From: Chlamydiota bacterium
Lineage (GTDB): Bacteria > Chlamydiota > Chlamydiia > Chlamydiales > JAJFMA01
DNA length: 40,380 bases
Direction of reading: 5' to 3'
Assembly (NCBI GenBank): GCA_021772415.1
Contig: JAJFMA010000096.1
Coordinates: forward strand, 1 to 40,380
Shown: positions 4,542 to 29,525 of the stretch, in pieces
Position numbering within the stretch: the stretch's first letter is position 1
How the letters are laid out: each line of letters opens with the position of its first letter
Position numbers and translations under genes: made by a program
The notes under the pieces: generated by a model
Told to the model about the DNA's origin: nothing
Databases searched by the model: none
The model's input: only the letters and a program-made list of their open reading frames with translations

Positions 4542-4681
4542 TTAACGCAAAGAAGCAAAGACGCTAAGACGCTAAGAGAAGAAACTCGTATTATAGTGCC
4601 CCCATTATCTAGACATTGGGGACCACTATAACACCATAGTTCCTCCCTTTGCGTCTTAGCGTCTTTGCTTCTTTGCGTTAA
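4542..4681. repeat. Long intergenic hairpin with 8-nt periodic arms (REPIN-like); may also act as a bidirectional terminator
   Basis: Perfect 31-bp inverted repeat 4542-4572 / 4651-4681 plus inner stem 4591-4604 / 4617-4631, between convergent genes. Confidence 0.9.
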
Positions 4682-4750: not shown

Positions 4751-5482
4751 TTACTGGTCCGTCGAGGCTATTAATTTCACCAGATTCATTCCCTCTTTGT
4801 ACAGCAATGTGAATGTTCCAGCCGCAAAGGCTTTGGTGCCTGCTCCTTTAAGCAACTGCCTTCCAAATTCCACCTTCAATCCCTTTTGCCAACGTGTAAG
4901 AGCCGTGTCTGCGGGATGGCCAACAATACTTCCAAAAAAGCCACTAATAAAATAGGAAATCACGTCCACGAGGTGATTGTCTCCAAACTTTCTCTTCATC
5001 TCATTAGAAACCGGATCACTAATTCTGATGGCACCTAAGAAACTTGTTTCACGTACAAGAATGGCTCCGCTTTGCTTCCACGTAAGAGCCCTCAAGACCT
5101 GTGGCAGGGAGAGACCCATCGTCAACCCGTTGAACCAAGCTAAGGGCACGACGGAGATCGTACCCACAGCTAGTGAACTCATTAGCATCGAAGTGAATGT
5201 CGGTGCATCCCTTTTTCCCACGTACCTATTCCAAAGAACTTCAAAACCTTTCTGAGCAATCATCTGCGTGCCCACAATGCCGCCGATCACAGGCGCTGCT
5301 TTAACCCCGCTGGAGATCACTTGTCGAGGACGAAATTTTGGCATTACATTGCCAAGCTGGAGATCGCTTTTAGCCATGAAAAGGTAATAGGGCGGAATAA
5401 TCGCCGCTCCCGCAACTAATGGAGGAGCGAACCAGTCCTCTTTGTTCTTCCATATAGTCTTAAAAATCGAATTACAATCCAT
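4751..5482 (-). CDS. Mitochondrial carrier family (SLC25)-like membrane protein
   Basis: 243 aa hydrophobic; SGFFGSIVGHPADTALTRWQ resembles Px[DE]xx[KR]xRxQ, followed by LLKG; AILVRETSFLG resembles carrier helix 4. Confidence 0.6.
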   Translation of the reverse strand: MDCNSIFKTIWKNKEDWFAPPLVAGAAIIPPYYLFMAKSDLQLGNVMPKFRPRQVISSGVKAAPVIGGIVGTQMIAQKGFEVLWNRYVGKRDAPTFTSMLMSSLAVGTISVVPLAWFNGLTMGLSLPQVLRALTWKQSGAILVRETSFLGAIRISDPVSNEMKRKFGDNHLVDVISYFISGFFGSIVGHPADTALTRWQKGLKVEFGRQLLKGAGTKAFAAGTFTLLYKEGMNLVKLIASTDQ

Positions 5483-5631
5483 ACCACCATCACAGTAACA
5501 GTTTAATAAATAAGGGAATTAGTTATATTATCTAATTAAACTATTAACGAAAAGAAAGTAATCTCAATGAATTAAAACATCGTATTTAAAATACCGAGAG
5601 TTCTCTATGGATTTGCCTCTCCCGTGGCCGT

Positions 5632-6537
5632 TTAGGCTCTGGCTTTGATCCATTTTAGGACGAGATCGGCCGTTGGTCCTACGAGCATAACGCTGGCGAA
5701 GGTGACGCCGGCGCCGAGGAGTTTGTACCAAGTGAGTGGCTCATGAAGGAAGACGTATCCCCATAGAATGACAATGACGGGGCATAGAAGAGTGGCGAAG
5801 GCCACGTAGCTGGCACCTATTTTTTTGACGAGTCTGAAGTATACGATCCATGGAAGTGCTGTTCCGAAGACGCCGAGTGCGACCATATATCCGCTTAGGG
5901 TCCATGTGAGGGTTGCGCTATGCCATGGTTGGTCATAGAGAGCGCTGATGGGTGTCAGTAGCAGCGTTGCAGCGACGACTTGAAGTGTTGCTGCGGGCAA
6001 TGGCGGCACGTGATCCAGAGTGCGCTCTGTGTACAGGAAGCCTGACGCGAAGGAGATAGCCATCATGTTGAGCATGAGCACACCTAGTCCAATGCCATGT
6101 CCTTCGTGGCTGACGGTAGGCATCAGAATAATCATGAGACCGGCAAAACCGAGCACGGCTCCAGCAACTTGGCGGGCATTTAGTTTACGTTGACCGAGCA
6201 CTACAACAGAGATTACGAGGGTGTATAGGGACACTGATCCTTCGATGATACCAGCAGTAGAGCTGTCGGCGTAGACTTCACCGAGTGCACAGCAGGTGAA
6301 GGCGATGACGTTATTGAGTAAGCCCGCGATGAAAATCTTCTTCCAATCGCGTAAGTAGGGGCGCAGCGGACGTTTTTGAATAAAACACCAACCAAGCAAG
6401 AATAGAGAAGCGACAACAAGGCGCATCCACGTGAGCGTGATGGGGGGTATGTCGTGGACGCCGATGCGTATGATCAGGAATGTGGGGCTCCAGAGCAATG
6501 CTAGGAGACAAACACCTAGCAGGTCACGGGTTTTCAT
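5632..6537 (-). CDS. EamA/DMT family transporter
   Basis: 301 aa, about 10 TM helices, LLWSPTF..PPITLTWMRL N-terminus and LLCPV..GYVFLHE C-terminus. Confidence 0.88.
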   Translation of the reverse strand: MKTRDLLGVCLLALLWSPTFLIIRIGVHDIPPITLTWMRLVVASLFLLGWCFIQKRPLRPYLRDWKKIFIAGLLNNVIAFTCCALGEVYADSSTAGIIEGSVSLYTLVISVVVLGQRKLNARQVAGAVLGFAGLMIILMPTVSHEGHGIGLGVLMLNMMAISFASGFLYTERTLDHVPPLPAATLQVVAATLLLTPISALYDQPWHSATLTWTLSGYMVALGVFGTALPWIVYFRLVKKIGASYVAFATLLCPVIVILWGYVFLHEPLTWYKLLGAGVTFASVMLVGPTADLVLKWIKARA

Positions 6538-6614
6538 TTTTCCACCTAATTAGTTTAAATTTAAGTATTTAAATACGCCAGTATACTCCCCAGAGAATTT
6601 CTGGGCACACAACT

Positions 6615-7721
6615 TTATAAGAAATTCAAACGTAAAAACATCGATTCAAAACAGCTGCGGACTGACGACGATCGCATAATATTGAGGCGTGCGTCAGCAA
6701 CAACTTTTAGGACATTATCGAGAGGCAGCAACAGACCACGCTGCAGGGCTTGAGTAAGAGATTGCTCAACATAGGGGTGACGCAGTAATTTGGAGTCGCC
6801 TCCACGATGCAATAGATGCATGTCGCGGTACCATCCGAGGACAGCTTCTAATAGACCTTCGATTTCCTCGCGAAAGCGCAAAGTGACGGCACCATCGACT
6901 TCCTTCTGAAGGCTTTCGCGTTGTACAGCGGTGAAATTCTCACTTCCTTCGGGGGTGATGGACCCGGAGATCTCCTCGTTGAGCCCTTCCTTCAAGGCTT
7001 CACAGTGTGCATCTAAATCATTTAGGAACTCACCAAGCTCACTGTAGGCGTTAAGGCGTCCCTGTCCTAACAAGGCTAGCAGAGCATCGTGAATAGGACA
7101 CCCGCCTTTGTCTAGAGTGCGTAAGGCACGACCTATGGAGCCTCGAGCAATACCCGCGATATGCACCGCTTCGGCATGTTCACATCCTCTCTCGGCTTCT
7201 AGGAACTGCGCAATGGTGTTCTTTGGGATAGGCTTAAAATGGAGTTTACGGCAGCGCGACATAATGGTCGGGAGCAGGTGCTGTGGCGCACTTGCCAACA
7301 AGATAATCAGTGTGTGGTGAGCGGGCTCCTCAAATGTCTTTAAGAGGGCGTTGGCGCTAGTGGGAAGCATCCTGTCTGCGTCGTGGATGATGAAAACCTT
7401 GTACGCAGCTTCTGTAGGAGGCATATAGACCTGATCACCGAGACGACGCAGGGAGTCGATACTATGCATCGCCAGCTTCCCTTGCGGACGGAAGATATGC
7501 AAGTCGGAGTGGTTACCAGCATTGAGTTTATGTCTATGCGATGCGCTATCACCTTCGGAAGCAATCACCTCCTTGGCGAGTTCTAGAGCAAACAGGCTTT
7601 TACCCACCCCTTCGGGACCGGCGAAGAGTAGAGAATGCCCTATACGTTCGGCATCTACCATCCGTTGAAGATAGTCTTTGATGTGGTCGTTGCCCAGGAT
7701 ATGAGTGAAATCCATAGACAT
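6615..7721 (-). CDS. holB: DNA polymerase III delta' subunit
   Basis: HSLLFAGPEGVGK, ANALLKTFEEP and LPTIMSRC; follows tmk. Confidence 0.9.
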   Translation of the reverse strand: MSMDFTHILGNDHIKDYLQRMVDAERIGHSLLFAGPEGVGKSLFALELAKEVIASEGDSASHRHKLNAGNHSDLHIFRPQGKLAMHSIDSLRRLGDQVYMPPTEAAYKVFIIHDADRMLPTSANALLKTFEEPAHHTLIILLASAPQHLLPTIMSRCRKLHFKPIPKNTIAQFLEAERGCEHAEAVHIAGIARGSIGRALRTLDKGGCPIHDALLALLGQGRLNAYSELGEFLNDLDAHCEALKEGLNEEISGSITPEGSENFTAVQRESLQKEVDGAVTLRFREEIEGLLEAVLGWYRDMHLLHRGGDSKLLRHPYVEQSLTQALQRGLLLPLDNVLKVVADARLNIMRSSSVRSCFESMFLRLNFL

Positions 7722-8377
7722 CAGAGACGCTCCTGAATCGCCGCTGCTACCTGTCTAAAGACGTCGCTCGGATCCTGATGGGCATCGATAACATGTAGGC
7801 GTAACGGTTCACGCTGTGCTAGCGCCAAGTAACCCTCACGGATCGCCTGGTGGAATTCGATCGCTTCAGATTCTATGCGGTCGAGGTCACCGCTGCCTGC
7901 AGTGTCTTTGCTAGTGCTTCTGGATCGCTGGAGACCGACTTCGGGATCGACGTCGAGGTAGAACGTGAGGTCCGGCACAGTGTGCTCGCATACTATCTGG
8001 CACATTGCTTCGATACGGTCGGCGCCGAGTCCACGGCCAACCCCTTGGTAGACGATCGTTGAATCGTTAAAACGGTCACACAACACTACTCCACCCGAGG
8101 CTAGAGCGGGGCGGATACGTTCGTGGAGGTGCTGAGCACGCGAAGCTAAAAAAAGACAGAGCTCAGCCATCGCTGCGATATCGACGTCAGATTTCGTGTC
8201 AAGGAGCCAACGACGAACCTGGTCACCGAGCGTAGAACCACCCGGCTCCCGTGTCTTTAAAGTGGAGTAGCCCAGCGTAGCGAGATGTCCATCCAGCTGG
8301 GCGATGAGTGACGATTTACCGGCACCCTCGCCCCCTTCGAAAGACACAAACAGTCCGGGCCATTCGCTCTGAGACAT
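7721..8377 (-). CDS. tmk: Thymidylate kinase
   Basis: FEGGEGAGKS, TREPGG and LCDRFNDSTIVYQG. Confidence 0.96.
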   Translation of the reverse strand: MSQSEWPGLFVSFEGGEGAGKSSLIAQLDGHLATLGYSTLKTREPGGSTLGDQVRRWLLDTKSDVDIAAMAELCLFLASRAQHLHERIRPALASGGVVLCDRFNDSTIVYQGVGRGLGADRIEAMCQIVCEHTVPDLTFYLDVDPEVGLQRSRSTSKDTAGSGDLDRIESEAIEFHQAIREGYLALAQREPLRLHVIDAHQDPSDVFRQVAAAIQERL

Positions 8378-8380
8378 CTT

Positions 8381-10948
8381 CTATTCCTGAGGCGCTTCTT
8401 CTGCAGTATCTGCAGGCTGTTCCTGGATAGCCTCGGACTCTGAGGCCTCTTCAGTAACTACAACTTCAGCTGTTTCCTCTCCGTCAAACTCTTCTTCACT
8501 GGCCATTGCCGGCAGCTTTTGCATCGCAACGAGGTTGTCGGAATCTTGGAGCGTGACAACCTTGACACCTTGGGTATTACGTCCCATGACACGTAGGTCA
8601 CTGACACGTACACGGATGGTTTGGCCTGCCGCCGACATGAGCACAAGGCTTTCATCGTCTTCGACGCTTAGAGCGCCAATGACGTTGCCATTACGCTCAC
8701 TGGTAATGATGGAACGTACACCAACACCTCCGCGGTTTGTTTGGCGGAAGTCTTCGACCTTGGAACGCTTACCGAAACCGTTTTCGCAGACGACTAGGAT
8801 AGACTCGTCCCCTTTAACGACCTCTAAGCTGATGACGCCATCACCTTCACCACGGATGGAGACGCCCTTGACACCGCGGGCTAGACGTCCCATCGCACGG
8901 ACGGTGCTTTCATCGAAACGCACGGCCATTCCGCCACCTGTGAAGAGCATAATTTGCTCGGAGGTATTGACGAGGCGCGCACCGATGACTTCGTCTCCGT
9001 CGTCGATATTTAGCGCCCAGATCCCTTTGCGACGTGGGTTGCTGAATCCTGACAGAGGAGTCTTCTTGACGATCCCATTGCGCGTTGCAAGTACGATACC
9101 CGCCTCGCCTTCGAAATCGGAAACTTGAAGTATCGTAGCAATCTTTTCGTCCGGACGGATGTCTTCGAGAAGGTTGATAAGTGGTTTGCCTTTGGAGCGT
9201 CGCCCCGCATCTGGGATATGCCATACCTTGAGCCAGTAGCAACGCCCGAGATTAGTGAAAATCAGGAGGTAGTCGTGCGCGTTAGCAACATAGAGATCTT
9301 TGAGGGCATCCGTTTCCTTCTTAAGCTGGAAGCCTACAACACCCGAACCACCTCTGCGCTGCTCACGGAAGGTGTCTACAGGCATACGTTTAATGTAGTC
9401 ATCCTCGGAAATAGTGATAATCGCCGGTTCGTTAGGGATAAGGTCTTCGGCATCGACATCGCCTTCTGCAGGGATAATCTGTGTTCTGCGTGGGCATTTG
9501 TGTTTGGCTTTAACTTCTTCAAGCTCTTCTTTAATGATGTCGCGCACCATCTGTTCGCTGGCTAGGACAGCACGAAGGTATTCGATACGCTTGAGAAGAG
9601 CATCGTATTCGGCCTGGATCTTGCCGTGCTCAAGGCCTGTAAGCTGATAGAGCTTTAGGTCTAGAACGGCGTTAGCTTGCCTTTCAGTGAATTCAAAGCG
9701 TGCAATCAGTTCCTTCTTAGCCTCGTCACGGTTGGCGGAGGCGCGAATGAGCTTGACTACCTCGTCGAGGTTGTCGATAGCTTTAAGGTATCCCTCAAGG
9801 ATATGTGCACGAGCTTCTGCTTTGTTTAACTCAAAGCGTGTACGACGGCGGACAACTTCGATACGGTGCTCCACCCATGCAGCAATCATCTGTTGGACGT
9901 TCATGACTCTTGGACGTCCCTTGTCCAGAGCAAGCATGATGCAGCCAAAAGTGACTTGTAGGTCACTAAACTTGTAGAGCTGGTTGATGATAACTTCTGG
10001 GATCTGCTGGCGCTTGAGTTCGACAACTAGGCGCAGGCCGTCTTTGTCTGACTCGTCACGAAGGTCGCTGATACCCGTGATACTCTTATTGTTGATGAGA
10101 TCCGCGATCGTCTCGATCAAACGCGACTTGTTGACGTTGTAGGGGATCTCATCGATGATTAAGCGCTGACGTTCGGACTGGCCAGGCATGTCTTCGATGG
10201 CAATTTGCGCGCGCAATATGATGCGTCCGCGCCCATTGTGGTAGGCTTCTTTAACTCCGCGGTACCCACAGATAAGTCCTCCTGTGGGGAAATCTGGAGC
10301 TGGCATCACTTCCATCAGATCGTCGACGGTAGCACTGGGATTGTCAATAACCATGAGAGTTGCTTTGATCAGCTCTTCTAGGTTATGTGGAGGGATATTC
10401 GTCGCCATCCCCACCGCAATTCCTGACGATCCATTACAAAGCAGGTTGGGGAATTTCGCGGGAAGGACAGTAGGCTCCTTCTTAGTCTCGTCGTAGTTAG
10501 CGACCATATCGACGGTGTCTTTGTCGAGGTCCTCCATCAGCTGCACCGCCGACAAAGTCAGACGTGCTTCCGTATAACGCATCGCTGCTGGTGGGTCTCC
10601 GTCAACGGAGCCAAAATTCCCTTGGCCATCGACGAGTCGGTAACGCATCATCCATTCCTGTGCCATACGCACGAGGGTAGGATAGATGACCTGCTCACCA
10701 TGAGGGTGGTAATCACCAGAGGTATCACCGGCAATTTTTGCGCATTTACGGTGCTTGCCTCCGGGCGACAGGTTTAGCTGCCGCATCGCGTACAAAATAC
10801 GTCTCTGCGAAGGTTTCAACCCATCGCGGGCGTCTGGCAGGGCACGAGAAATGATGACGGACATCGAATAGCGTAGGTAGCTTTCCTTCATCTCGTCTTC
10901 CACATTACGTGGAATGATCACTTCGTTGATTGTGTTCTCCGTTGTCAT
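8381..10948 (-). CDS. gyrA: DNA gyrase subunit A
   Basis: RALPDARDGLKP, YHPHGE, AAMRYTEAR catalytic Tyr and GyrA box QRRGGSG. Confidence 0.98.
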   Translation of the reverse strand: MTTENTINEVIIPRNVEDEMKESYLRYSMSVIISRALPDARDGLKPSQRRILYAMRQLNLSPGGKHRKCAKIAGDTSGDYHPHGEQVIYPTLVRMAQEWMMRYRLVDGQGNFGSVDGDPPAAMRYTEARLTLSAVQLMEDLDKDTVDMVANYDETKKEPTVLPAKFPNLLCNGSSGIAVGMATNIPPHNLEELIKATLMVIDNPSATVDDLMEVMPAPDFPTGGLICGYRGVKEAYHNGRGRIILRAQIAIEDMPGQSERQRLIIDEIPYNVNKSRLIETIADLINNKSITGISDLRDESDKDGLRLVVELKRQQIPEVIINQLYKFSDLQVTFGCIMLALDKGRPRVMNVQQMIAAWVEHRIEVVRRRTRFELNKAEARAHILEGYLKAIDNLDEVVKLIRASANRDEAKKELIARFEFTERQANAVLDLKLYQLTGLEHGKIQAEYDALLKRIEYLRAVLASEQMVRDIIKEELEEVKAKHKCPRRTQIIPAEGDVDAEDLIPNEPAIITISEDDYIKRMPVDTFREQRRGGSGVVGFQLKKETDALKDLYVANAHDYLLIFTNLGRCYWLKVWHIPDAGRRSKGKPLINLLEDIRPDEKIATILQVSDFEGEAGIVLATRNGIVKKTPLSGFSNPRRKGIWALNIDDGDEVIGARLVNTSEQIMLFTGGGMAVRFDESTVRAMGRLARGVKGVSIRGEGDGVISLEVVKGDESILVVCENGFGKRSKVEDFRQTNRGGVGVRSIITSERNGNVIGALSVEDDESLVLMSAAGQTIRVRVSDLRVMGRNTQGVKVVTLQDSDNLVAMQKLPAMASEEEFDGEETAEVVVTEEASESEAIQEQPADTAEEAPQE

Positions 10949-15569: not shown

Positions 15570-16046
15570 TTAACGTAGGGAGGTTTCGACAAGATGTTGA
15601 AGGAGTCCTTCACAGGAGTCTTCAAGGATATCGAGGACCAGCTCAAAAGTGCCGGCATCTCCGTAGTAGGGATCGGGGATATCTTCATCTTTGTACGATG
15701 CGCTAAAGTGTGTAATTAAATGCACTTTAGCTTTGTGATAGGGCTCAGGAGCCTTTTGATAGAGGGTATACAGGACATCGCGGTCAGCCGAAAGGATGTA
15801 GTCAAAAGTGTCGAAATCGGCCTTCTCAATGACTTGAGCCCGCCCACTGAGGACAACACCGCGGATGAGAGCAGCCTTTTGCATACGTTCATCGGGCCGT
15901 TGTCCAATAGACCAATCTCCCACGCCACGGCTTTCCACAGATAAAGCAAGTGGGAAGTTGATTTTATGCGCAATATGACGCAGCAAACCTTCAGCAGCGG
16001 GAGAGCGGCAGATATTACCTAGGCAGACAAAAAGTACAGAAGCCAT
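15570..16046 (-). CDS. Low molecular weight protein-tyrosine phosphatase
   Basis: FVCLGNICRSP P-loop and DIPDPYY. Confidence 0.93.
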   Translation of the reverse strand: MASVLFVCLGNICRSPAAEGLLRHIAHKINFPLALSVESRGVGDWSIGQRPDERMQKAALIRGVVLSGRAQVIEKADFDTFDYILSADRDVLYTLYQKAPEPYHKAKVHLITHFSASYKDEDIPDPYYGDAGTFELVLDILEDSCEGLLQHLVETSLR

Positions 16047-16057
16047 TAGCGCGGCTC

Positions 16058-17896
16058 CTATTGCACATCTGCAGCGCAGCGGAACCCGTAAGTTCCGTTG
16101 ACGGTACCAGGATTATTTCTGTGTCGCCTGGAACAGCGAAGATCTTCTTTTAGGCTCTTCCAACAGCCGCCACGTAGCACGCGGTAGACTCCCTGGCGTG
16201 GACCTTGCGGATTATCAGGCTCTTGAACCGAGCGCTCGTAGTAGTTGTAATCGTACCAATCTAGACACCACTCGTAGACATTACCCGCCACGTCGTAAAG
16301 CCCGAGCTCATTCTCGGGGTAGGCCTTAATCGGTGTGGTATCAGCGCTAAAATAGTTAGCCTGGCTCTTATCAATCGCATCTCCTGTGGGGAACGCCCAC
16401 CCGTGGTCTCCGCCACTGGCTGCGACCTCCCACTCGGCCTCGGTAGGTAGGCGCTTACCTACCCACTTGGCGTAGGCGGAAGCCCCGTACCACGTTACCC
16501 CTACCACAGGATGTTTGTGGTAGCCTGACTCGATGCTCACTTTGCCACCACTACGCTTAATGCGAGACTCTCTTAAACGAATGAGGTCACGATGGAAATT
16601 GTCCTTTTCGCCTCCCATAGCCTCTAAGAAGCGCACAAACTGCTCGTTGGTGACAGGATGGACATCAACAGCAAAGCTGCGAAGGGTGATCTTATGGCGA
16701 GGCAGTTCGTCACGTTTACCGTCGGTACTACCTCGGGAGAAAGTTCCCCCTTCGATAATAATCATCTCAGTCTCGAGTGGAGCAATCTCCGGTAGCTCCT
16801 TCGACTCAGGTTGGTAGACCTTTACCGTATGGTCGACTTGGAAGGCCTTCTCGGGGTGAAGATCTTCCTCTGGACGCTCGAGATGGCGCGAACGGATGAG
16901 GGGTTGAGGACTTCCATCAGCGTGGCGAGCTTGGCGCTGAGGTGTCGGGGTAGGAGCCACTTGATTCAGCTCAGCCATAGCGTCGGTTAACGTCTTTGGA
17001 CGCTGTGTCGGCTCGGGGTGCATACACAACTGCACGAGTGCGTCCCAGTTGCCTACTAAATCGTCTCGCAGTGTAGAGGGAAGAGGGAAGCAGCCTTCTG
17101 GCACCCTGCCGGCCAAAAGCCAGTAAGCCAATACCCCAAAGGCATAGCGGTCTGTTGCCACACCAATCGCGTTGAAGCGTGCCACATCTTTTTGCTCAGG
17201 AGCAAGGAAGGCGAATGTTTGCTGGAAGGAATCGTGCCACGCCAACACCTCTGGGCTCGCGTCGGTACTGCCCTCGGACAATGTACGCAGCACAACAGAA
17301 AGTGTGCGCGCCAAAATGTGTAAACTACTTGCCATCCCAGCTAAGCCAAAATCTCCGACACTCACCTTCAAGCCATTACCTTCCACGCTGACGTGTACGT
17401 TAGAAGGCTTTAAGGCTCCATGGACGGCCGGATGATTCCCGAGCTGCGTTGTATGCGCATGATCCACAGCCGCGGCAACCTGCTGAAGGATTTGACTGAT
17501 CACATCTTCAGTAAGTCGTTGCTGATGCGCATCAAAAAACTGCACAAGACTGGTCGTTGCCCCCTCAGTATCCACTACCGCGTCAGTGACGAGGAAATAG
17601 CGGCCATCTGCTTGAGATACATTATGGACGCGAACGACATTAGGGTGATTTAACTGCCCAAGAAGACGCACTTCGGTTTCAAAACGCTGGATAAAACCAG
17701 GGGCGGAAGCGATGTCTTCATGGAGAATTTTGAGAACTACGGGCTGCTTAAGAAAGCGATGCTCAGCAAGAAATGTCTCACCGAGAGACCCCGACCCGAG
17801 GCTACGTAAGATACGGTAATCACCAAAATTACGAGAGCCCTCTTGACCCTGGAGCACTGCAGAATCGCTTTGCTGCCGTGTGTCGTCCTCCGTCAT
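16058..17896 (-). CDS. pkn1: Chlamydial Pkn1-type Ser/Thr kinase fused to an FGE-sulfatase (SUMF1) domain
   Basis: LGSGSLG, VLK, DFG and APE kinase motifs; C-terminal RLPTEAEWE, GNVYEW, RGGCW and GFRC. Confidence 0.85.
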   Translation of the reverse strand: MTEDDTRQQSDSAVLQGQEGSRNFGDYRILRSLGSGSLGETFLAEHRFLKQPVVLKILHEDIASAPGFIQRFETEVRLLGQLNHPNVVRVHNVSQADGRYFLVTDAVVDTEGATTSLVQFFDAHQQRLTEDVISQILQQVAAAVDHAHTTQLGNHPAVHGALKPSNVHVSVEGNGLKVSVGDFGLAGMASSLHILARTLSVVLRTLSEGSTDASPEVLAWHDSFQQTFAFLAPEQKDVARFNAIGVATDRYAFGVLAYWLLAGRVPEGCFPLPSTLRDDLVGNWDALVQLCMHPEPTQRPKTLTDAMAELNQVAPTPTPQRQARHADGSPQPLIRSRHLERPEEDLHPEKAFQVDHTVKVYQPESKELPEIAPLETEMIIIEGGTFSRGSTDGKRDELPRHKITLRSFAVDVHPVTNEQFVRFLEAMGGEKDNFHRDLIRLRESRIKRSGGKVSIESGYHKHPVVGVTWYGASAYAKWVGKRLPTEAEWEVAASGGDHGWAFPTGDAIDKSQANYFSADTTPIKAYPENELGLYDVAGNVYEWCLDWYDYNYYERSVQEPDNPQGPRQGVYRVLRGGCWKSLKEDLRCSRRHRNNPGTVNGTYGFRCAADVQ

Positions 17897-17900
17897 ACTC

Positions 17901-18842
17901 CTACGCTCCCCGTGCTTTATTTCCTGGCGGCCGATGTTCTCTAAGATATTGCTCTGCAGCGTCTAACGCTTTGCTGCGCCTGTACCATTCGCGGGCCGTG
18001 GTGAGCAGAGCTTTTGCCTCTGCGTGCTGCCCTGTGTCTACCGCCTCGCGCACGAAAAACGCGACATCATCCCGAGCGATCATGATATTGTGAGTCGCAA
18101 TATTCTTCAAGCTAGCCGACACCACAGAAGCTTTGGAATCCTCCGAAGCGAAGCTCACCGACATCCTGTAAAGAGAAGCGTCTTGCGGGAATAGTTGAAT
18201 CGCACGCTGAATGTTCTCGGCTACAGCAGCACGCCGTTTTTCGCGCTCCTCAGGTGTCCTCCCTCGTTGCCATAATCGTATGTGTAAAATCGCCTTAGTT
18301 TTGTAGGCAAGATAGTGCTCCGGAAGCTGGCGATAAGCCGCAAAGAAAACCGGGAAAAAGTTTTTAAAGTCCGATAAATTCGCATGCGCCGCTGCAACGA
18401 GATACCCAAGATGCGCATATTCTTCATGATGCTTAACGATGACAGCATACTGATCCACGATTTCCTCTGCCTCGTGCTTGGTAGCTATGCGTTTCTGATG
18501 GGTTAGATAGCCCTCTAGCGCAGCCATATAGTGAGGTTGTTCTTCGCGAAAGAGTGTTGCCGGGGTTTTCGGAGGCTTTAGGTCATCAAGGGCCTCTAAA
18601 AAAACCTCAATGGCTCGCCCCTGTTCCTGATCGAAGTGGTAGGCGATAGCCAAACGCAGCCCGATTTCAGCTTGGATTTCGGGATCAGATTCTTGTTTGA
18701 GAAGCGCCTTGGAGCGCTCAATTGCCGCCGTAATCTCATACTCCTCCATCAGAGCATCAATTTCGTCTGTTACCGGCGACGCCAGCAAGCCCAGAGGCGT
18801 GCTAATGCATAAAAATACTATTCGATGGAAGGAGAAGCCCAT
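17901..18842 (-). CDS. Exported TPR-like helical protein
   Basis: N-terminal signal-like segment, Ala/Leu/Tyr-rich helical repeats (AIQLFPQDASLY); 4 nt from pkn1. Confidence 0.6.
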   Translation of the reverse strand: MGFSFHRIVFLCISTPLGLLASPVTDEIDALMEEYEITAAIERSKALLKQESDPEIQAEIGLRLAIAYHFDQEQGRAIEVFLEALDDLKPPKTPATLFREEQPHYMAALEGYLTHQKRIATKHEAEEIVDQYAVIVKHHEEYAHLGYLVAAAHANLSDFKNFFPVFFAAYRQLPEHYLAYKTKAILHIRLWQRGRTPEEREKRRAAVAENIQRAIQLFPQDASLYRMSVSFASEDSKASVVSASLKNIATHNIMIARDDVAFFVREAVDTGQHAEAKALLTTAREWYRRSKALDAAEQYLREHRPPGNKARGA

Positions 18843-18918
18843 GCGTCATTTCTCTTCAATTCTCAATAATCTCGCCTCAGGATATCGAACACAAAGACCA
18901 AAGTCACCAAAGAAATAG

Positions 18919-18955
18919 AAAAGGGGCCGGACCCTGCGATTCGTGCGATTCTATG
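18919..18955 (-). repeat. Left (inverted) copy of the RAYT-flanking motif
   Basis: 18919-18952 AAAAGGGGCCGGACCCTGCGATTCGTGCGATTCT is 33/34 identical to the reverse complement of 20055-20088. Confidence 0.92.
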
Positions 18956-19020
18956 TTGCGGAGACCATTAACATTTGGCATAGTCCTGTTTAGTAGTATT
19001 TATTTTACAAGGCGATTGGA

Positions 19021-19998
19021 ATGCCTAGAAAGAAGCGATCTTGGCAAAAGAACATGTGCCACCACGTCATGCTAAGGGGCATCGACGGTAGAAACATCTT
19101 TGGTGACGATGGTGACCGCAGTAGATTCTGCCTATTACTCCAGGAAGCGTCCGAACTACACTCGTTCCGGATACATGGCTTCTGTCTCATGTCCAATCAT
19201 GTGCACTTCATAATAGAACCCGTTGGCGACCGATTATCGACTGGAGTTCACCGTTTTGCTGGAAGATACGCCCAGTACTTTAACAAGAAGTATGACAAAA
19301 ACGGGTACGTCTTCCAAGGGCGCTTTCGCTCTATTTTGGTGCAAGACGGGGTCTATTTACGAAGATTACTGAGATATATTCATCTGAATCCTCTGGAGGC
19401 ATCTCTCACTAGGTCAGCTGAGGAGTACAGGTGGTCTAGTCACGGCGCCTACTTCGGTAGAGCAATCTTTACTTGGCTAGAAACAGACCGAGTCCTGTCC
19501 TACTTTGGCAACAATCATCGAGATGCGTTGGCTAAATTAGCCGTCTTCATGAACGCAAAAGCACAGTCCCACGACGGTGCCGAAGAAATACAACGTGCTT
19601 CGCGGGTAGGGGCCTACGGAAGTCAGGAATTTACAAAGATCTACGCCCCAGAAACTGAGTCTAGTCTATTACAAAGTACCCACCAAATCATTGATCCAAA
19701 ACTCAAGTTGACTAATGCCTTAGAGGCTGTCTGCCAACGCTTTGACGTATCCATAGAGGTACTACGAAGTAGTGACAAAAGGCGCTGTGCTGTAGAAGCT
19801 AGAGCAGTCCTAACGCGGACTTGCCAAAGGATGGAAGGATTGAGTATCAATGACGTGTGTACATTACTTGGAAAGCACCACGGGACTCTGTCACGGCTAG
19901 CATCACGCGCTGTTAGTCAACCACATTTGCGTCACGCGGTTGACGAACTAGTGCAATGGCTGTCGAAATATGTACAGTCTCAGTCCAGTATCTATTGA
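19021..19998 (+). CDS. REP-associated tyrosine transposase (RAYT, Y1 HUH) with a C-terminal DnaA-domain-IV-like HTH
   Basis: MPRKKR..HHVMLRG, CLMSNHVH (HUH), VFQGRFRS, YIHLNP (catalytic Tyr) and YRWSS; C-terminus VCQRFDVSIEVLRSSDKRR..EAR..LGKHHGTL. Confidence 0.88.
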   Translation: MPRKKRSWQKNMCHHVMLRGIDGRNIFGDDGDRSRFCLLLQEASELHSFRIHGFCLMSNHVHFIIEPVGDRLSTGVHRFAGRYAQYFNKKYDKNGYVFQGRFRSILVQDGVYLRRLLRYIHLNPLEASLTRSAEEYRWSSHGAYFGRAIFTWLETDRVLSYFGNNHRDALAKLAVFMNAKAQSHDGAEEIQRASRVGAYGSQEFTKIYAPETESSLLQSTHQIIDPKLKLTNALEAVCQRFDVSIEVLRSSDKRRCAVEARAVLTRTCQRMEGLSINDVCTLLGKHHGTLSRLASRAVSQPHLRHAVDELVQWLSKYVQSQSSIY

Positions 19999-20052
19999 CA
20001 GCTTGCTTCATTCCATCTTGCCAGTTCCACACACACATACACCCACCTAACC

Positions 20053-20224
20053 ACAGAATCGCACGAATCGCAGGGTACGGCCCCTTTTACGAATCGCAGG
20101 GTACGGCCCCTTTTACAGAATCGCACGAATCGCAGGGTACGGCCCCTTTTACGAATCGCAGGGTACGGCCCCTTTTACGGCCCCTTTTACGAATCGCAGG
20201 GTACGGCCCCTTTTTACGGCCCCC
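20053..20224 (+). repeat. Tandem array of the RAYT-associated motif ACGAATCGCAGGGTACGGCCCCTTTT
   Basis: Five 26-27 nt copies (20063, 20089, 20125, 20151, 20189), two 10-nt leaders (20053, 20115) and two short suffix copies (20177, 20216); degenerate copy near 20372-20420. Confidence 0.95.
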
Positions 20225-20296
20225 TAAAATAAAACAATCAGAGTGAAACAACCATTCAAAGCATTTTACTCCTACCCAAAGACATTGAGCCCCCCA

Positions 20297-20345
20297 CATG
20301 ACCCTCCATGTACTCCATGCCCTTCCCTCCATGTTCTCCATGGTT
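20297..20345 (-). repeat. Solo arm of ~9-nt periodic CTCCATG repeat
   Basis: CTCCATG four times, ending CTCCATGTTCTCCATGGTT; related arm at 28995-29033. Confidence 0.65.
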
Positions 20346-20581
20346 TTTCTCGAGTGGACAAGGCTAAGCCATACACGAACCGCACGGTAGGGCCCCTTTA
20401 TCTCCGGCCCCTTTATCCCCGCATGCGTTCACCATGACCTCGAGCTTTCCACGGCGGCACACATACTTTTTCCTTGCCCTAGTTCCCCTTGGGCGTGTTG
20501 GCTTTTAATGATTTGTCTGTTATTTTGACTGCTTTCAAAAATCACGGTTTCTCCGTCACCCGCAACTGGTAACGACTCTTT

Positions 20582-23113
20582 ATGGATAAGCGCACTTTAT
20601 TCTTTTTTGTGTCTTTGACGCTGACGCTTTTTGTTGTGAACCTATTCTTTCAATACCAGAATCAGGGCACCAACAAGAAATGGGTCGAGCAGCAGAAAGC
20701 CCTACAGCAACAGCACCAGGAAAAGTTGTTGGTGGAGCTATCCGAGCGCACGAGTAAGCCGAATGAGCTTCCTTTGGTGGAGCTTTTCTCCGACAGCCAA
20801 GGCAACAGTTATGTGACTACTGGCGTCAAAGTTGATGATGCCATTCTAGTCCTTTCTTGGTCGGGAGCTCTTCCGAAGACGTTATATTCTCGTGAATGGG
20901 GTTCGCGGAAAACGCCACAAGCGCTATCTCTTCGCACAGAAGCCCCGCGCAGTGGTGAGCCTGCAATTTATAGTCGCAGTGCCACTGGGACGCTACGTAT
21001 TGCAGACCTCGAAGATGTGGGCACCTTTGACCTGCAGTTGATGAGCGCCGCTCCACGTCTAAGTTCCGAGGAGGTGCGCATTTCTTTGGGGCGTCTGCGT
21101 GACGGAAACTTCTCCCTTCCTGCTGAAGACTTAGAGATCACAGTGGATGAGCAGGCGGCATTTTTGCCAGGGCGCGACGCGATCATCTTACGGAAGACAA
21201 GTCAGGGTTATCTTCCTGCTGCGGTCTATTCTCTGGAACACAGCACTCTTTTCCGTCTCGAGGACTTTGAGGGGTTGGGGGCTGTGGAAGTGGTATCCGA
21301 AGTTCCCGAGATCCCTATGGGTACGGGAATCGCGGACCAGAAGTACTACGTGCTAGAAAACGCCTTTGTGCAGTTGGTTTTCACTAATGTTGGAGGAGCT
21401 CTTTCTGAAATCAACCTCCCGTTCGAGACTGAGGAGAACCCGAAAAGCGTTGTGAAGGAGATTGAGCTTGACCGCGAGATGATGGAGAAGCACCCTGCTG
21501 ACGCCCACTTCCCAGCTCACGGCTACTACACCACAGGTACTGCACACGATGGCACATCGACATTCCATGCGAAGGGTCATGAAAGCGGGTACTACCCACT
21601 TCTGAGGCGCGATGTCATCGCTGCCAATGGAAGCACGGAGACGGCGATCAACCCGCACTTTTACTCGACTAATATTGTGTCCGAGTATCCTGAGATGGCG
21701 CAGCGTCCGTATACGGTGAAGCGATTCACCAAAAACCAGATTGTATTCGAGTCGCAGCAGAGCCGTCGACGTATCACTAAGACCTATACACTATCTGATG
21801 CGGCTCCCTATGTTGTGGACCTCACGATCGACGTTGATGGCGACGCGAAGGGACTTTGGCTGACATCTGGAGTTCCTGAGGTGGAGCTTGTCTCTGGGTA
21901 TCCGGCACCTGCCATCAAGTATCGCTTTACGCGTTTTGACAAGAGTGAAGTCACTTCTGTGGATTTGCCTAAGGACACGATTGCTTTTAGTTCTTTCCAT
22001 CCGGACTGGATTACCAATTCCAATGGTTTCTTCGGATTAATTGTCGATCCTCTCTCGGAGATTGACCCAGGGTACAAAGCTACGCGGGTTTCGAGCCGTA
22101 GCGCTCCTACGCGTCTGATGCAGCTTAGTGCTGGTCAAGACTCTCATGGAGCACCTAAAGAATTCCCAGGGTATCAGCTTCTCCTACCTCTTAAGGGTAG
22201 TGGAGGCAGTATGCAGTTCCGACTGTTCACAGGTCCTTTTGCTAGCGACATATTGGAACGTGCCGACGAAGCCTTCAGTGACCCTGCAACGGGCTACAAC
22301 CCTGAGTACACTTCGGCACAAAGCTATCATGGGTGGGCGAGTTTCATTTCGGAGCCGTTCTCAAAGTTCCTTTTTGCGTTGATGCGGTTTTTCCACCATC
22401 TGACGGGGTCGTGGGCCTTTTCGATCATTCTATTGACGATAGCGCTAAGGCTTATGTTGTATCCACTGAATGCGTGGTCGACGAAGTCGGCTCTACGCAT
22501 GCAGAAGCTTGGTCCAAAAGTGGCTGCTCTTAACGAGAAATACAAAAAAGACCCCAAGAAGGCTCAGATGGAGACCTTCAACCTTTATCGTGAGGAAGGG
22601 GTAAACCCCATGTCGGGTTGCTTTCCGTTGATCATACAGATGCCTTTCTTGATCGGTATGTATGATCTGCTGAAATCGACGTTTGAACTTAGAGGCGCCA
22701 CATTCATCCCTGGATGGATCGATGACCTTGCTGCGCCAGATGTGCTGTTTACATGGGGACAGCCCATTCCGTTTATTGGGAATGAATTTCACCTACTGCC
22801 TCTGATTTTGGGTGCGTGCATGTTCCTTCAGCAGCGCATGATGTCTCCGGCTCCTAGCGATCCGAACCTAATGACGGACCAGCAGCGTCAGGCTCGTGCT
22901 ATGACGACGATGATGGCGCCGATGTTCACGATCATGTTCTACCACTTCCCTTCTGGTTTGAGCATCTACTGGATTTCATCGACGGTAGTCGGAGTGCTGC
23001 AGCAATGGATCACTGCGCGTCAGCTTAACAAGGAGAGCTCTGAAAAGGCCTCTGACTCGGGGTCTGGGTCGACACCAAGCAAACAGGGCAAGCCTAAGAA
23101 AAGGAAGGCATAG
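20582..23113 (+). CDS. yidC: Membrane protein insertase YidC (long chlamydial type)
   Basis: MDKRTLFF N-terminus, SWAFSIILLTIALRLMLYPL, NPMSGCFPLIIQMP and PSGLSIYW. Confidence 0.95.
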   Translation: MDKRTLFFFVSLTLTLFVVNLFFQYQNQGTNKKWVEQQKALQQQHQEKLLVELSERTSKPNELPLVELFSDSQGNSYVTTGVKVDDAILVLSWSGALPKTLYSREWGSRKTPQALSLRTEAPRSGEPAIYSRSATGTLRIADLEDVGTFDLQLMSAAPRLSSEEVRISLGRLRDGNFSLPAEDLEITVDEQAAFLPGRDAIILRKTSQGYLPAAVYSLEHSTLFRLEDFEGLGAVEVVSEVPEIPMGTGIADQKYYVLENAFVQLVFTNVGGALSEINLPFETEENPKSVVKEIELDREMMEKHPADAHFPAHGYYTTGTAHDGTSTFHAKGHESGYYPLLRRDVIAANGSTETAINPHFYSTNIVSEYPEMAQRPYTVKRFTKNQIVFESQQSRRRITKTYTLSDAAPYVVDLTIDVDGDAKGLWLTSGVPEVELVSGYPAPAIKYRFTRFDKSEVTSVDLPKDTIAFSSFHPDWITNSNGFFGLIVDPLSEIDPGYKATRVSSRSAPTRLMQLSAGQDSHGAPKEFPGYQLLLPLKGSGGSMQFRLFTGPFASDILERADEAFSDPATGYNPEYTSAQSYHGWASFISEPFSKFLFALMRFFHHLTGSWAFSIILLTIALRLMLYPLNAWSTKSALRMQKLGPKVAALNEKYKKDPKKAQMETFNLYREEGVNPMSGCFPLIIQMPFLIGMYDLLKSTFELRGATFIPGWIDDLAAPDVLFTWGQPIPFIGNEFHLLPLILGACMFLQQRMMSPAPSDPNLMTDQQRQARAMTTMMAPMFTIMFYHFPSGLSIYWISSTVVGVLQQWITARQLNKESSEKASDSGSGSTPSKQGKPKKRKA

Positions 23114-26329: not shown

Positions 26330-26639
26330 GAGAGTGTAAAGAAATAGCACAAGGATATAAATCACGATAAATTGTTCATAAGGCCCGAAGGGACGACTCA
26401 TTGTAGCCCCACCCGGGAGGGTGGGGTAAGATTCAAAAGAAATCTGAGGCCTGTAAGGCCGACTCGTGGCTCCATAAGCGCTTCACAAGTATCTGTGAGG
26501 CATGAGTCGGCCTTACAGGCCTCCTGAATTTTCTATGCTTGACCCCACCCTCCCGGGTGGGGCTACAATGAGTCGCCCCTTCGGGACTCATGAAAAGTCA
26601 ACGATTTCTCAATCGATCTCGGGATTTCTTTACACTCTT
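26330..26639. mobile_element. 310-bp non-autonomous MITE-like element carrying a REP-like long hairpin
   Basis: TIRs GAGAGTGTAAAGAAAT / ATTTCTTTACACTCTT (15/16); TGC on both flanks; internal 43-bp (42/43) and perfect 20-bp inverted repeats. Confidence 0.8.
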
Positions 26640-29077: not shown

Positions 29078-29339
29078 CTGAGGCCTGTAGAGAGTATAAA
29101 GAAACCTCAATGTTCCCTTTTTTTGGACCTTAAGGGCTCTTCGCATGCTGGTACGCTGTGGTTTCTTGACACTCTCGTAAGGGCGACACCGTAACATGAA
29201 ACATGTGTCGCACTTACAGCGCTTCGGAGCTTAATTTGTCTACCTGGGGCTACGCCCCAGGCTATACAGATTTCAGCCCCTCGGGCCTTATGAACAATTT
29301 ATCGTGATTTGTACCCCAGTGTTATTTCCTGACACTCTC
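29078..29339 (-). mobile_element. Partial, inverted relative of the 26330-26639 element
   Basis: 29277-29339 is the near reverse complement of 26330-26392 (shared AAATCACGATAAATTGTTCATAAGGCCCGA); contains REP-like CCTGGGGCTACGCCCCAGG. Confidence 0.75.
29090..29176. mobile_element. 87-bp MITE nested inside the previous element
   Basis: TIRs GAGAGTATAAAGAAACC / GGTTTCTTGACACTCTC (15/17); GTA duplicated at 29087-29089 and 29177-29179. Confidence 0.8.
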
Positions 29340-29525
29340 TTCGAACCTTAGAAGTAATTCGCTAACAGGGATTTAGCTCTTATTTGTTCTCCCCTATCAG
29401 GAAAACAATTTAGGAGAGTCCTGAGTGTAAGGGTGTCAATTGCAGATTAGTATGCTTTGTCCTTGGAAGGAAATGGATGTTCCTCGATGATGGGCATCTT
29501 TCTAGGTTAAGAAAACGGGCTATTG

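Follow-up and report, generated by a model that had tools for sequence, protein, structure and literature searches.

What kind of element carries an HUH/Y1 nuclease gene between inverted copies of a motif, and which part of the protein would read that motif? The question is raised by a locus near the middle of a 40,380-nt stretch of DNA (the window), which is contig JAJFMA010000096.1 of the Chlamydiota bacterium assembly GCA_021772415.1 (2.98 Mb, 307 contigs, 79% complete; below, the window is contig C303 of genome G000). The gene at this locus encodes a nuclease with a DnaA-like C-terminal helix-turn-helix (HTH) domain. Judged from its sequence, the locus is a TIRtron whose gene product is a TIRYT, equivalent to TnpA_REP subgroup 2.1.2, and thus belongs to an already described class. 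An earlier reading, made from the letters of the window without database searches (the sequence-only reading), had proposed a distinct class; that novelty is lost, as TIRYTs and TIRtrons were published in 2013 (PMC3733652) and subgroup 2.1.2 in 2018 (PMC6006769). The best explanation, to which we give a probability of about 80%, joins TIRtron identity, tripartite ends, and HTH-guided recognition of those ends in one account.

The element and its right flank are laid out as follows.

18919–18955, + strand: left terminal inverted repeat, reading from the outside inwards AAAA, a GGGG run, CCGGACC, and the half-sites CTGCGATTC and GTGCGATTC at a period of 9
19021–19998, + strand: TIRYT gene, 325 residues, HUH/Y1 nuclease with a DnaA-domain-IV-like HTH
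20052–20224, + strand: right-end array, in which every unit is inverted relative to the left repeat
20292–20421, + strand: older, diverged solo end in the orientation of the array, made of a module, a variant repeat, and a doubled box

The inverted pair formed by 18919–18955 and 20052–20088 is 37 nt long and 95% complementary, and the left repeat holds eight identical bases in a run at a period of 9. The upstream copy lies 66–102 nt before the ATG, and the array begins 54–55 nt past the stop codon. A core 24-mer has five exact copies on the + strand (starts at 20065, 20091, 20127, 20153 and 20191) and one copy on the − strand, at 18919, with one mismatch; 100 shuffles of the sequence gave no match to it. 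Tandem Repeats Finder assigned the array a period of 62 nt over 20053–20214, plus a 12-nt sub-unit. Both half-sites are present in two full units (starts at 20052 and 20117), which are accompanied by three units with one half-site and by 12-nt sub-units that consist of the G-run box (TACGGCCCCTTT). This box reads GGGTACGG in the right array, as opposed to GGGTCCGG in the left copy and in the copies dispersed through the genome. The diverged solo end comprises a CTCCATGG-rich module (20292–20345), the variant repeat CACGAACCGCACGGTAGGGCCCCTTT (20374–20399), and the duplicated box GGCCCCTTTATC (20391–20420); it is an 88% sixth copy of the direct repeat and matches, by blastn, a mosaic repeat on another contig of the genome (C73). 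An Rfam scan of 18000–21000, at E-values up to 1, returned no match.

The encoded protein is divided as follows.

Residues ~1–165: HUH/Y1 nuclease domain with H60, H62 and Y119, followed by a helical middle part
Around residues 210–230: linker, of lower model confidence
Residues ~226–310: DnaA-domain-IV-like HTH with the invariant R261 and a recognition helix from K285-H-H-G-T-L-S-R292

An alignment of 48 homologs shows no variation at H60-V-H62 or Y119, and residues 11–121 match Pfam Y1_Tnp above its curated cut-off (E 7e-11). The AlphaFold2 model of the 325-residue protein has a mean pLDDT of 93.6, with lower values confined to the N-terminus and residues 210–230. Its top Foldseek match in the PDB is E. 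coli TnpA_REP with a REP hairpin (4er8_A, E 9e-7, TMt 0.74), and it also matches IS200/IS605-type TnpA folds (E 3e-4 to 1e-3). The C-terminal HTH is, on the combined reading of sequence and model, a real domain homologous to DnaA domain IV, because the TIRYT family profile reaches solved DnaA domain IV chains (3pvp, E 5e-9; 1j1v, E 6.5e-8). The model also superposes on the DnaA DNA-binding domain (3pvp_A) with a TMt of 0.74 and a root mean square deviation of 3.2 over 93 columns, and R261 is present in all 48 of the aligned sequences. On the single sequence, Pfam Bac_DnaA_C scored 26.6 bits, under its cut-off of 31.5. The NCBIfam model REP_Tyr_transpos (NF047646) reached 62.5 bits against a cut-off of 80, and the DnaA model TIGR00362 was matched only at positions 329–411 of 437, with 22.7 bits against a cut-off of 343.9. 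The TIRYT is not an initiator, since it has no AAA+ domain. A homodimer prediction with two copies of the protein scored 0.00 against a mark of 0.42, which weighs neither way.

This combination of features is known from two papers, cited here for the parts that bear on the locus. Di Nocera, De Gregorio and Rocco (BMC Genomics 14:522, 2013; PMC3733652) described TIRtrons, in which RAYT-like genes (TIRYTs) lie between terminal inverted repeats. They reported the sequence GGGGWSAS as common to many TIRtron repeats, though not to all members, repeats that in some cases form moderately abundant families as singles, dimers and clusters, and several distinct TIRYT genes within a single genome, whose repeats differ from gene to gene. 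Quentin et al. (BMC Genomics 19:475, 2018; PMC6006769) assigned long Y1 proteins with a Bac_DnaA_C-like C-terminus to TnpA_REP subclass 2.1, subgroup 2.1.2, found the subclass 2.1 genes to be without nearby REP-like structures, and equated them with TIRYTs. In the same paper, the DnaA-like domain was doubted as the reader of the ends because GGGGWSAS is unlike a DnaA box. A literature search for later work on the class gave none; besides these two papers it surfaced only two preprints, one on picocyanobacterial TnpA_REP and one on a mobilome.

The first alternative to weigh is that the element works in the classical RAYT or IS200/IS605 mode, in which the nuclease domain recognises folded single-stranded DNA and the HTH is used otherwise, for example for replication-fork targeting (Quentin et al.). 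The best structural match of the model is, after all, a TnpA_REP in complex with a REP hairpin, hairpins are used by all characterised Y1 transposases (as stated for IS608 and ISDra2 in PMC6006769), and the box carries a short imperfect palindrome, GGGNCCGGNCCC. This palindrome leaves no room for a loop, however, and neither the motif nor the array, on either strand, folds into a hairpin beyond chance (z −0.58 to +1.62 against shuffles). The motif has no GTAG foot, and what distinguishes the end of one element from that of another is a direct, not an inverted, repeat. As it folds no more stably than shuffled sequence, the window motif is not a REP-type hairpin, and we consider the single-stranded mode unlikely for this element. 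Up to this point the sequence-only reading has held up well: it had recognised the intact HVH motif and catalytic tyrosine, the DnaA-like C-terminal HTH, the inverted upstream copy and downstream array at their respective distances from the gene, and a palindrome that is only weak, with no GTAG foot. Of the two Pfam models that it had named for a check, Y1_Tnp matched above its cut-off, and Bac_DnaA_C stayed below its own on the single sequence.

The layout of the ends was compared across the family. For each full-length homolog, 300 nt of upstream flank were searched against 450 nt of downstream flank for the best inverted repeat; the homolog loci were drawn from 80 of the ~590 matches in each of two collections (genome and metagenome). 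The first set comprised the genome-collection loci, the in-order relatives, and the G000 paralogs (54 gene rows), while a second, independent set was taken from the metagenome loci (52 full-length genes, ten of them without flanks and 42 tested). An inverted repeat was counted when it outscored the best of 10 shuffles by 3 or more. In the first set, 36 of 54 rows exceeded this control, and 35 of these open with a G-run box; in the second, 35 of 42 did so, 33 with the box. When the 68 ends were aligned on the box, G at −3 and −1 and C at +1 were found in every one, followed by T at +7 (63/68), T at +15 (38/68), G at +8 (32/68) and G at +16 (28/68).

A periodicity was measured as the self-match of the 26 nt inside the box at periods 3 to 14, against 500 shuffles. 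At period 8, the first set (35 ends) gave 0.394 compared with 0.301 for shuffled sequence (z 5.5, 0/500), and the second set (33 ends) gave 0.373 compared with 0.279 (z 5.6, 0/500); no other period exceeded z 2.6 in either set. The result for the second set is a replication, because the same script was applied and the idea was taken from the first. The aligned sequences indicate that the family end is tripartite, with a G-box (GGGG then NC), a 7-nt spacer, and a pair of direct half-sites of 8 nt each, which often begin with TGA or TGC. By the same comparison, the G-run box is nearly invariant family-wide and the half-site sequence differs from element to element. At least two end copies in one orientation occur in 25 of the 68 elements and at least four in 4 of the 68, namely two in G000, one in a genome of the same family (G006), and one at a metagenome locus. 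The window element has the box GGGGCCGG, its two half-sites at period 9, and C at +7.

To relate the half-sites to the protein, ends with TC or CC boxes were classed as TGA (10) or TGC (14), 24 in all, with the unclassifiable 22 of 46 dropped, and 306 alignment columns were scored for covariation with half-site type. Residue 289 tracked the type best (z 4.9), followed by residues 151 (z 4.7) and 292 (z 4.7), and seven of the top ten columns fall in residues 226–300, about a quarter of the protein. In the profile alignment, K285-H-H-G-T289-L-S-R292 stands opposite R-D-H-T-T-V-M-Y of M. tuberculosis DnaA, and R261 aligns with the DnaA arginine. From this alignment and the E. coli numbering, we read T289, R292 and R261 as the counterparts of Thr436, His439 and the minor-groove residue Arg399, respectively, in E. 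coli DnaA. The E. coli DnaA helix 434–451 enters the major groove, and Arg399 the minor groove (PMC5742627). The recognition-helix covariation is suggestive only. Together with the end layout, also drawn from comparison of sequences, it favours, without proving, the idea of the sequence-only reading that the HTH reads the direct repeats, which in the window are GAATCGCAC-GAATCGCAG. The comparative results are silent on where, or whether, the HUH domain cuts.

In the account that we prefer, the flexibly tethered HTHs of two protomers would bind the two half-sites as duplex DNA. This binding would give each paralog its private specificity and would dock the HUH/Y1 domain on the G-box (both are conserved); DNA unpaired locally at the box could then be cut and rejoined via Y119. 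Tandem and partial end copies, solo ends and doublets would then be products of TIRYT activity, or of slippage between its sites. In its strongest form, the proposal is that TIRYTs would be the first transposase-like enzymes of the HUH/Y1 type to be guided by duplex reading in place of a hairpin, with a DnaA-IV-type HTH on two abutting head-to-tail 8–9-bp half-sites, the nuclease on a GGGG-NC box, and residues 289 and 292 setting specificity; this we put forward tentatively, as a conjecture with somewhat more chance of failing than of standing. If a few recognition-helix residues do set specificity, five orthogonal enzyme/site pairs could therefore coexist in one 3-Mb genome, each spreading its own repeats.

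Several points weigh against HTH-guided recognition. No biochemistry is reported for the class in PMC3733652 or PMC6006769, which leaves binding, strandedness, cut site and polarity as inferences. For a symmetric dimer, a pair of abutting sites in head-to-tail order is an unusual target, and replication slippage alone can explain the box-only tandem sub-units. The DnaA-like domain may not recognise the target at all, as Quentin et al. argued (PMC6006769). The window element itself is, by its sequence, an off-consensus member, with a half-site period of 9 instead of 8 and C instead of T at +7. The covariation sample is small, its classes were picked after the data had been seen, kinship was ignored (loci L152, L157 and L176 form a near-identical trio), and residue 151, which ranks second among the columns, is not in the HTH. 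Furthermore, box type tracks HTH type as well, with ACG boxes accompanying a shorter 'SAVS' HTH, so the HTH could contact the box instead.

A different role for the HTH would be to repress or insulate its own gene, in which case the flanking repeats would be operators, with the nuclease acting elsewhere or inactive. DnaA domain IV also serves autoregulation, and the left repeat occupies a typical operator position, 66–102 nt before the ATG here and with the outer end at a median of 60.5 nt before it in the family. Operators do not account for a motif that is also found downstream of the gene, inverted, in most relatives, and that is dispersed at ~16 loci far from the gene, nor for the invariance of the catalytic residues (H, H, Y). 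A scan for sigma-70-like promoters over 18800–20620 gave none, a weak test given that shuffles averaged 2.5. We regard this explanation as quite improbable, the least likely of those considered here.

The HTH-guided account is also informed by what the rest of the genome contains. The locus is one of five protein/repeat pairs in G000; its gene is single-copy, and gene-less ends are dispersed between genes, a pattern like that of RAYTs and their REPINs. The core 20-mer, which spans the box and the first half-site and of which positions 18923–18942 in the left repeat are an exact copy, has 31 matches in G000 at up to two mismatches, against none for the reversed control, and is found in none of 30 related genomes. 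A window-type 29-mer, at up to four mismatches, has 19 matches at 16 loci on 13 contigs, and 18 of these 19 copies fall outside long open reading frames (ORFs). All dispersed window-type ends are without the gene. Many of them end a ~280-nt mosaic repeat rich in CTCCATGG modules, and a diverged copy of this arrangement directly follows the array in the window, as the solo end at 20292–20421. No target consensus was seen beyond the dispersed ends, where the bases past CCCCTTT vary from copy to copy. Partial tandem duplications in three independent dispersed copies (on contigs C55, C127 and C253) share a start between a C and AGGGTCCGG, which lies between half-site and box. This shared start could mark a break point, although slippage at short homologies explains it equally well.

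By tblastn, further TIRYT paralogs were located on contigs C131 (55% identity), C289 (40%) and C300 (35%), along with a fragment on C49, which is a C-terminal piece cut by the contig end and so missing its upstream side. Every paralog has its own motif, which lies inverted on the two sides of the gene in all but the one on C49. Tandem motif copies follow the genes on C131 (two), C289 (four) and C49 (four), and the C300 gene sits between two inverted doublets. Using repeats of 24–31 nt and up to four mismatches, we counted dispersed loci of the C289 type (10), C300 type (22), C131 type (4) and C49 type (3). The C300 type includes 20 doublets, each consisting of a repeat, 60–61 nt (78–79 nt in two), and an inverted repeat; these are gene-less miniatures with the end configuration of the gene-bearing unit. 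Such doublets, which are a REPIN-like form of a hairpin-less end, are found, for example, at C300:318–434 and 1466–1581, where they flank the TIRYT gene, and on contigs C268 and C63.

Outward-facing window-type ends were also observed around a 4.65-kb stretch of contig C253, within positions 5400–10900 (L194). The stretch holds a gene with a cytidine/tRNA-adenosine-type deaminase domain, a PEP-CTERM protein gene and a rhomboid gene, with no TIRYT. We considered whether it might be a composite transposon and set this aside, as the stretch gives no sign of movement.

The position of the element can be read against the following neighbours.

17901–18842, − strand: left neighbour, 313 residues, earlier called a TPR gene, with no Pfam match; it adjoins a kinase gene in relatives too
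20582–23113, + strand: right neighbour, yidC (60KD_IMP), 843 residues

Beyond the left neighbour, at 15570–17896 on the − strand, a low-molecular-weight phosphotyrosine phosphatase gene lies beside a gene for a Ser/Thr kinase fused to an FGE-sulfatase domain. The architecture of this kinase and the length of the YidC are reminiscent of Chlamydiota. Ten relatives were matched for the comparison of neighbours, of which one locus (L085) ends at a contig edge; G008 was left out. The kinase gene adjoins the left neighbour in all relatives examined, and the synteny of these two genes in relatives extends to yidC. In the window, 1739 nt separate the left neighbour from yidC, compared with ~150 nt in G002 (L084), ~120 nt in G026 (L086) and at most 245 nt in G001 (L087). 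In G014 (L090), yidC is also close to the left neighbour, and in G009 no yidC was found within 1.5 kb of it. Other DNA occupies the spot in G006 (2.6 kb with two ORFs), G004 (5.5 kb) and G003 (2.3 kb). Since these two genes lie close together in several relatives, the TIRYT unit is an insertion relative to its kin, and the spot is one that accepts insertions. The borders of the insertion and any target preference are unreadable because the nearest genomes share only ~40–45% identity in the neighbouring protein.

The sequence-only reading had predicted homologs with cognate flanking motifs, and the counts from both sets agree with it. It had also placed the unit as an insertion between conserved genes, which the close relatives, with a short spacer there, support. 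The empty-site comparison that it had suggested succeeds at the level of these spacers, and fails at base resolution owing to the low identity of the neighbours. Where it had taken the motif as belonging to this unit, the 31 genomic matches to the core 20-mer show that the motif is not private to the locus.

Full-length TIRYT copies occur in five of the 31 related genomes (G000, G006, G011, G012 and G017), G006 having three copies; G022 holds a broken one, and the distribution is thus patchy. Such patchiness, together with the short spacer in relatives and inverted ends around one gene with intact catalytic residues, would be compatible with a plain autonomous insertion sequence, in which the gene and both ends move as a unit that arrived recently, the dispersed ends being decay products. 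That explanation is at odds with the lack of a second copy of the gene, whose nearest paralog and nearest database protein are each 55% identical, although an assembly that is 79% complete could hide collapsed or unassembled copies. It is equally at odds with dispersed ends that, without exception, lack the gene. We therefore doubt that the element is a simple insertion sequence, a possibility we rate no higher than the hairpin mode.

Beyond the close relatives, a word-indexed protein search returned 1810 proteins at E-values up to 1e-3, the nearest 55% identical and most with both Pfam domains. An exhaustive search returned 30,665 representative clusters at E-values up to 1e-3, a number that includes all Y1 relatives, and 485 at E-values up to 1e-30. 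Among the matches listed for the genome and metagenome collections, the best TIRYT identity was 32–34%; the top relative in the genome collection (L001) belongs to an uncultured Chlamydiales bacterium. Two proteins gave tandem matches to the TIRYT query, P0131 (1680 residues, nine matched stretches) and P0137 (1052 residues, six stretches), and these may be tandem gene copies that were read through or mis-called.

Other repeats were noted in the window. Within positions 1–922, a 12-nt unit (CGTGCCCGTGTG / CGGGCACGCACA) is arrayed in one orientation and in the other, with super-units of 34 and 47 nt; words of this unit also lie beside window-type ends on contigs C178 and C234, and the arrays probably represent another dispersed repeat family of G000. 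Two arrays of 8-nt units, ACGCAAAG at 4545–4577 and then its complement CTTTGCGT at 4647–4678, stand face to face ~70 nt apart, and similar CTTTGCG words occur near repeat copies on contigs C92 and C49. Copies of a 63–83-nt dispersed repeat lie at 26330–26392 and 29277–29359; a blast search with the flank of the C73 repeat gave ~30 genome matches to it at ~77–92% identity.

The element itself adds little to a class that has been in print since 2013. What may be of wider import is an end made of an invariant G-box and two element-specific direct half-sites, the type of which tracks residues of a DnaA-like recognition helix. This layout makes concrete the question left open in 2018, whether the DnaA-like domain recognises the ends. 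G000 is a convenient test bed for it, with five paralogs, five distinct half-site sequences, and matching dispersed families. Should duplex-guided reading prove true, the family would amount to a naturally occurring collection of single-strand nickases that are addressed by sequence and can be reprogrammed.

Set against known systems, the protein resembles the IS200/IS605 TnpA enzymes (IS608, ISDra2) in its HUH motif, single catalytic tyrosine, and Y1_Tnp match above cut-off. Those enzymes are ~130–150 residues long and without an HTH, and belong to elements with subterminal hairpin ends that are present as multiple whole copies, in contrast to the window, where there is no hairpin beyond chance and the gene is single-copy. 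Another likeness is to the classical RAYT, E. coli TnpA_REP (4er8), with which the locus shares the nuclease fold, a single-copy gene flanked by its own inverted repeat, a private dispersed family and, in the case of the C300 paralog, doublet (REPIN-like) forms. Classical REP hairpins carry a conserved GTAG or CGTC tetranucleotide; the locus differs from this type in having an extra HTH and neither a hairpin nor a GTAG foot, and in scoring under the REP_Tyr_transpos cut-off. DnaA domain IV on the 9-bp DnaA box (1j1v, 3pvp) offers a homologous fold and sequence, an arginine in the basic loop equivalent to R261, and the same position of the recognition helix. The proposed sites, by contrast, are 8–9 nt long, abutting and head-to-tail, and are unlike TTATNCACA.

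The nearest likeness is to the TIRtrons, since the window has a RAYT-like HUH/Y1 gene between non-hairpin terminal inverted repeats that start with GGGG. Shared as well are repeat families dispersed in the genome and several TIRYT genes side by side, each with repeats of its own. The window box, GGGGCCGG, keeps the G-run and the C at +1 that are invariant in the 68 ends and differs from the published GGGGWSAS at the W and A positions, and the right array, with five long units, is unusually large. The two-half-site layout is not mentioned in the text of PMC3733652, as far as it is drawn on here, though Figure 9 or the supplements of that paper may already display direct repeats; with this proviso, and as far as the literature was searched, the end layout and its covariation with the HTH are not in print. 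As in TnpA_REP subgroup 2.1.2, the window encodes a long Y1 protein with a Bac_DnaA_C-like C-terminus and has no REP-like structures nearby; the assignment is judged by these features. Where the present account departs from Quentin et al. (PMC6006769) is in the proposed target of the HTH, which would be the variable half-sites lying inside the box, and not the box.

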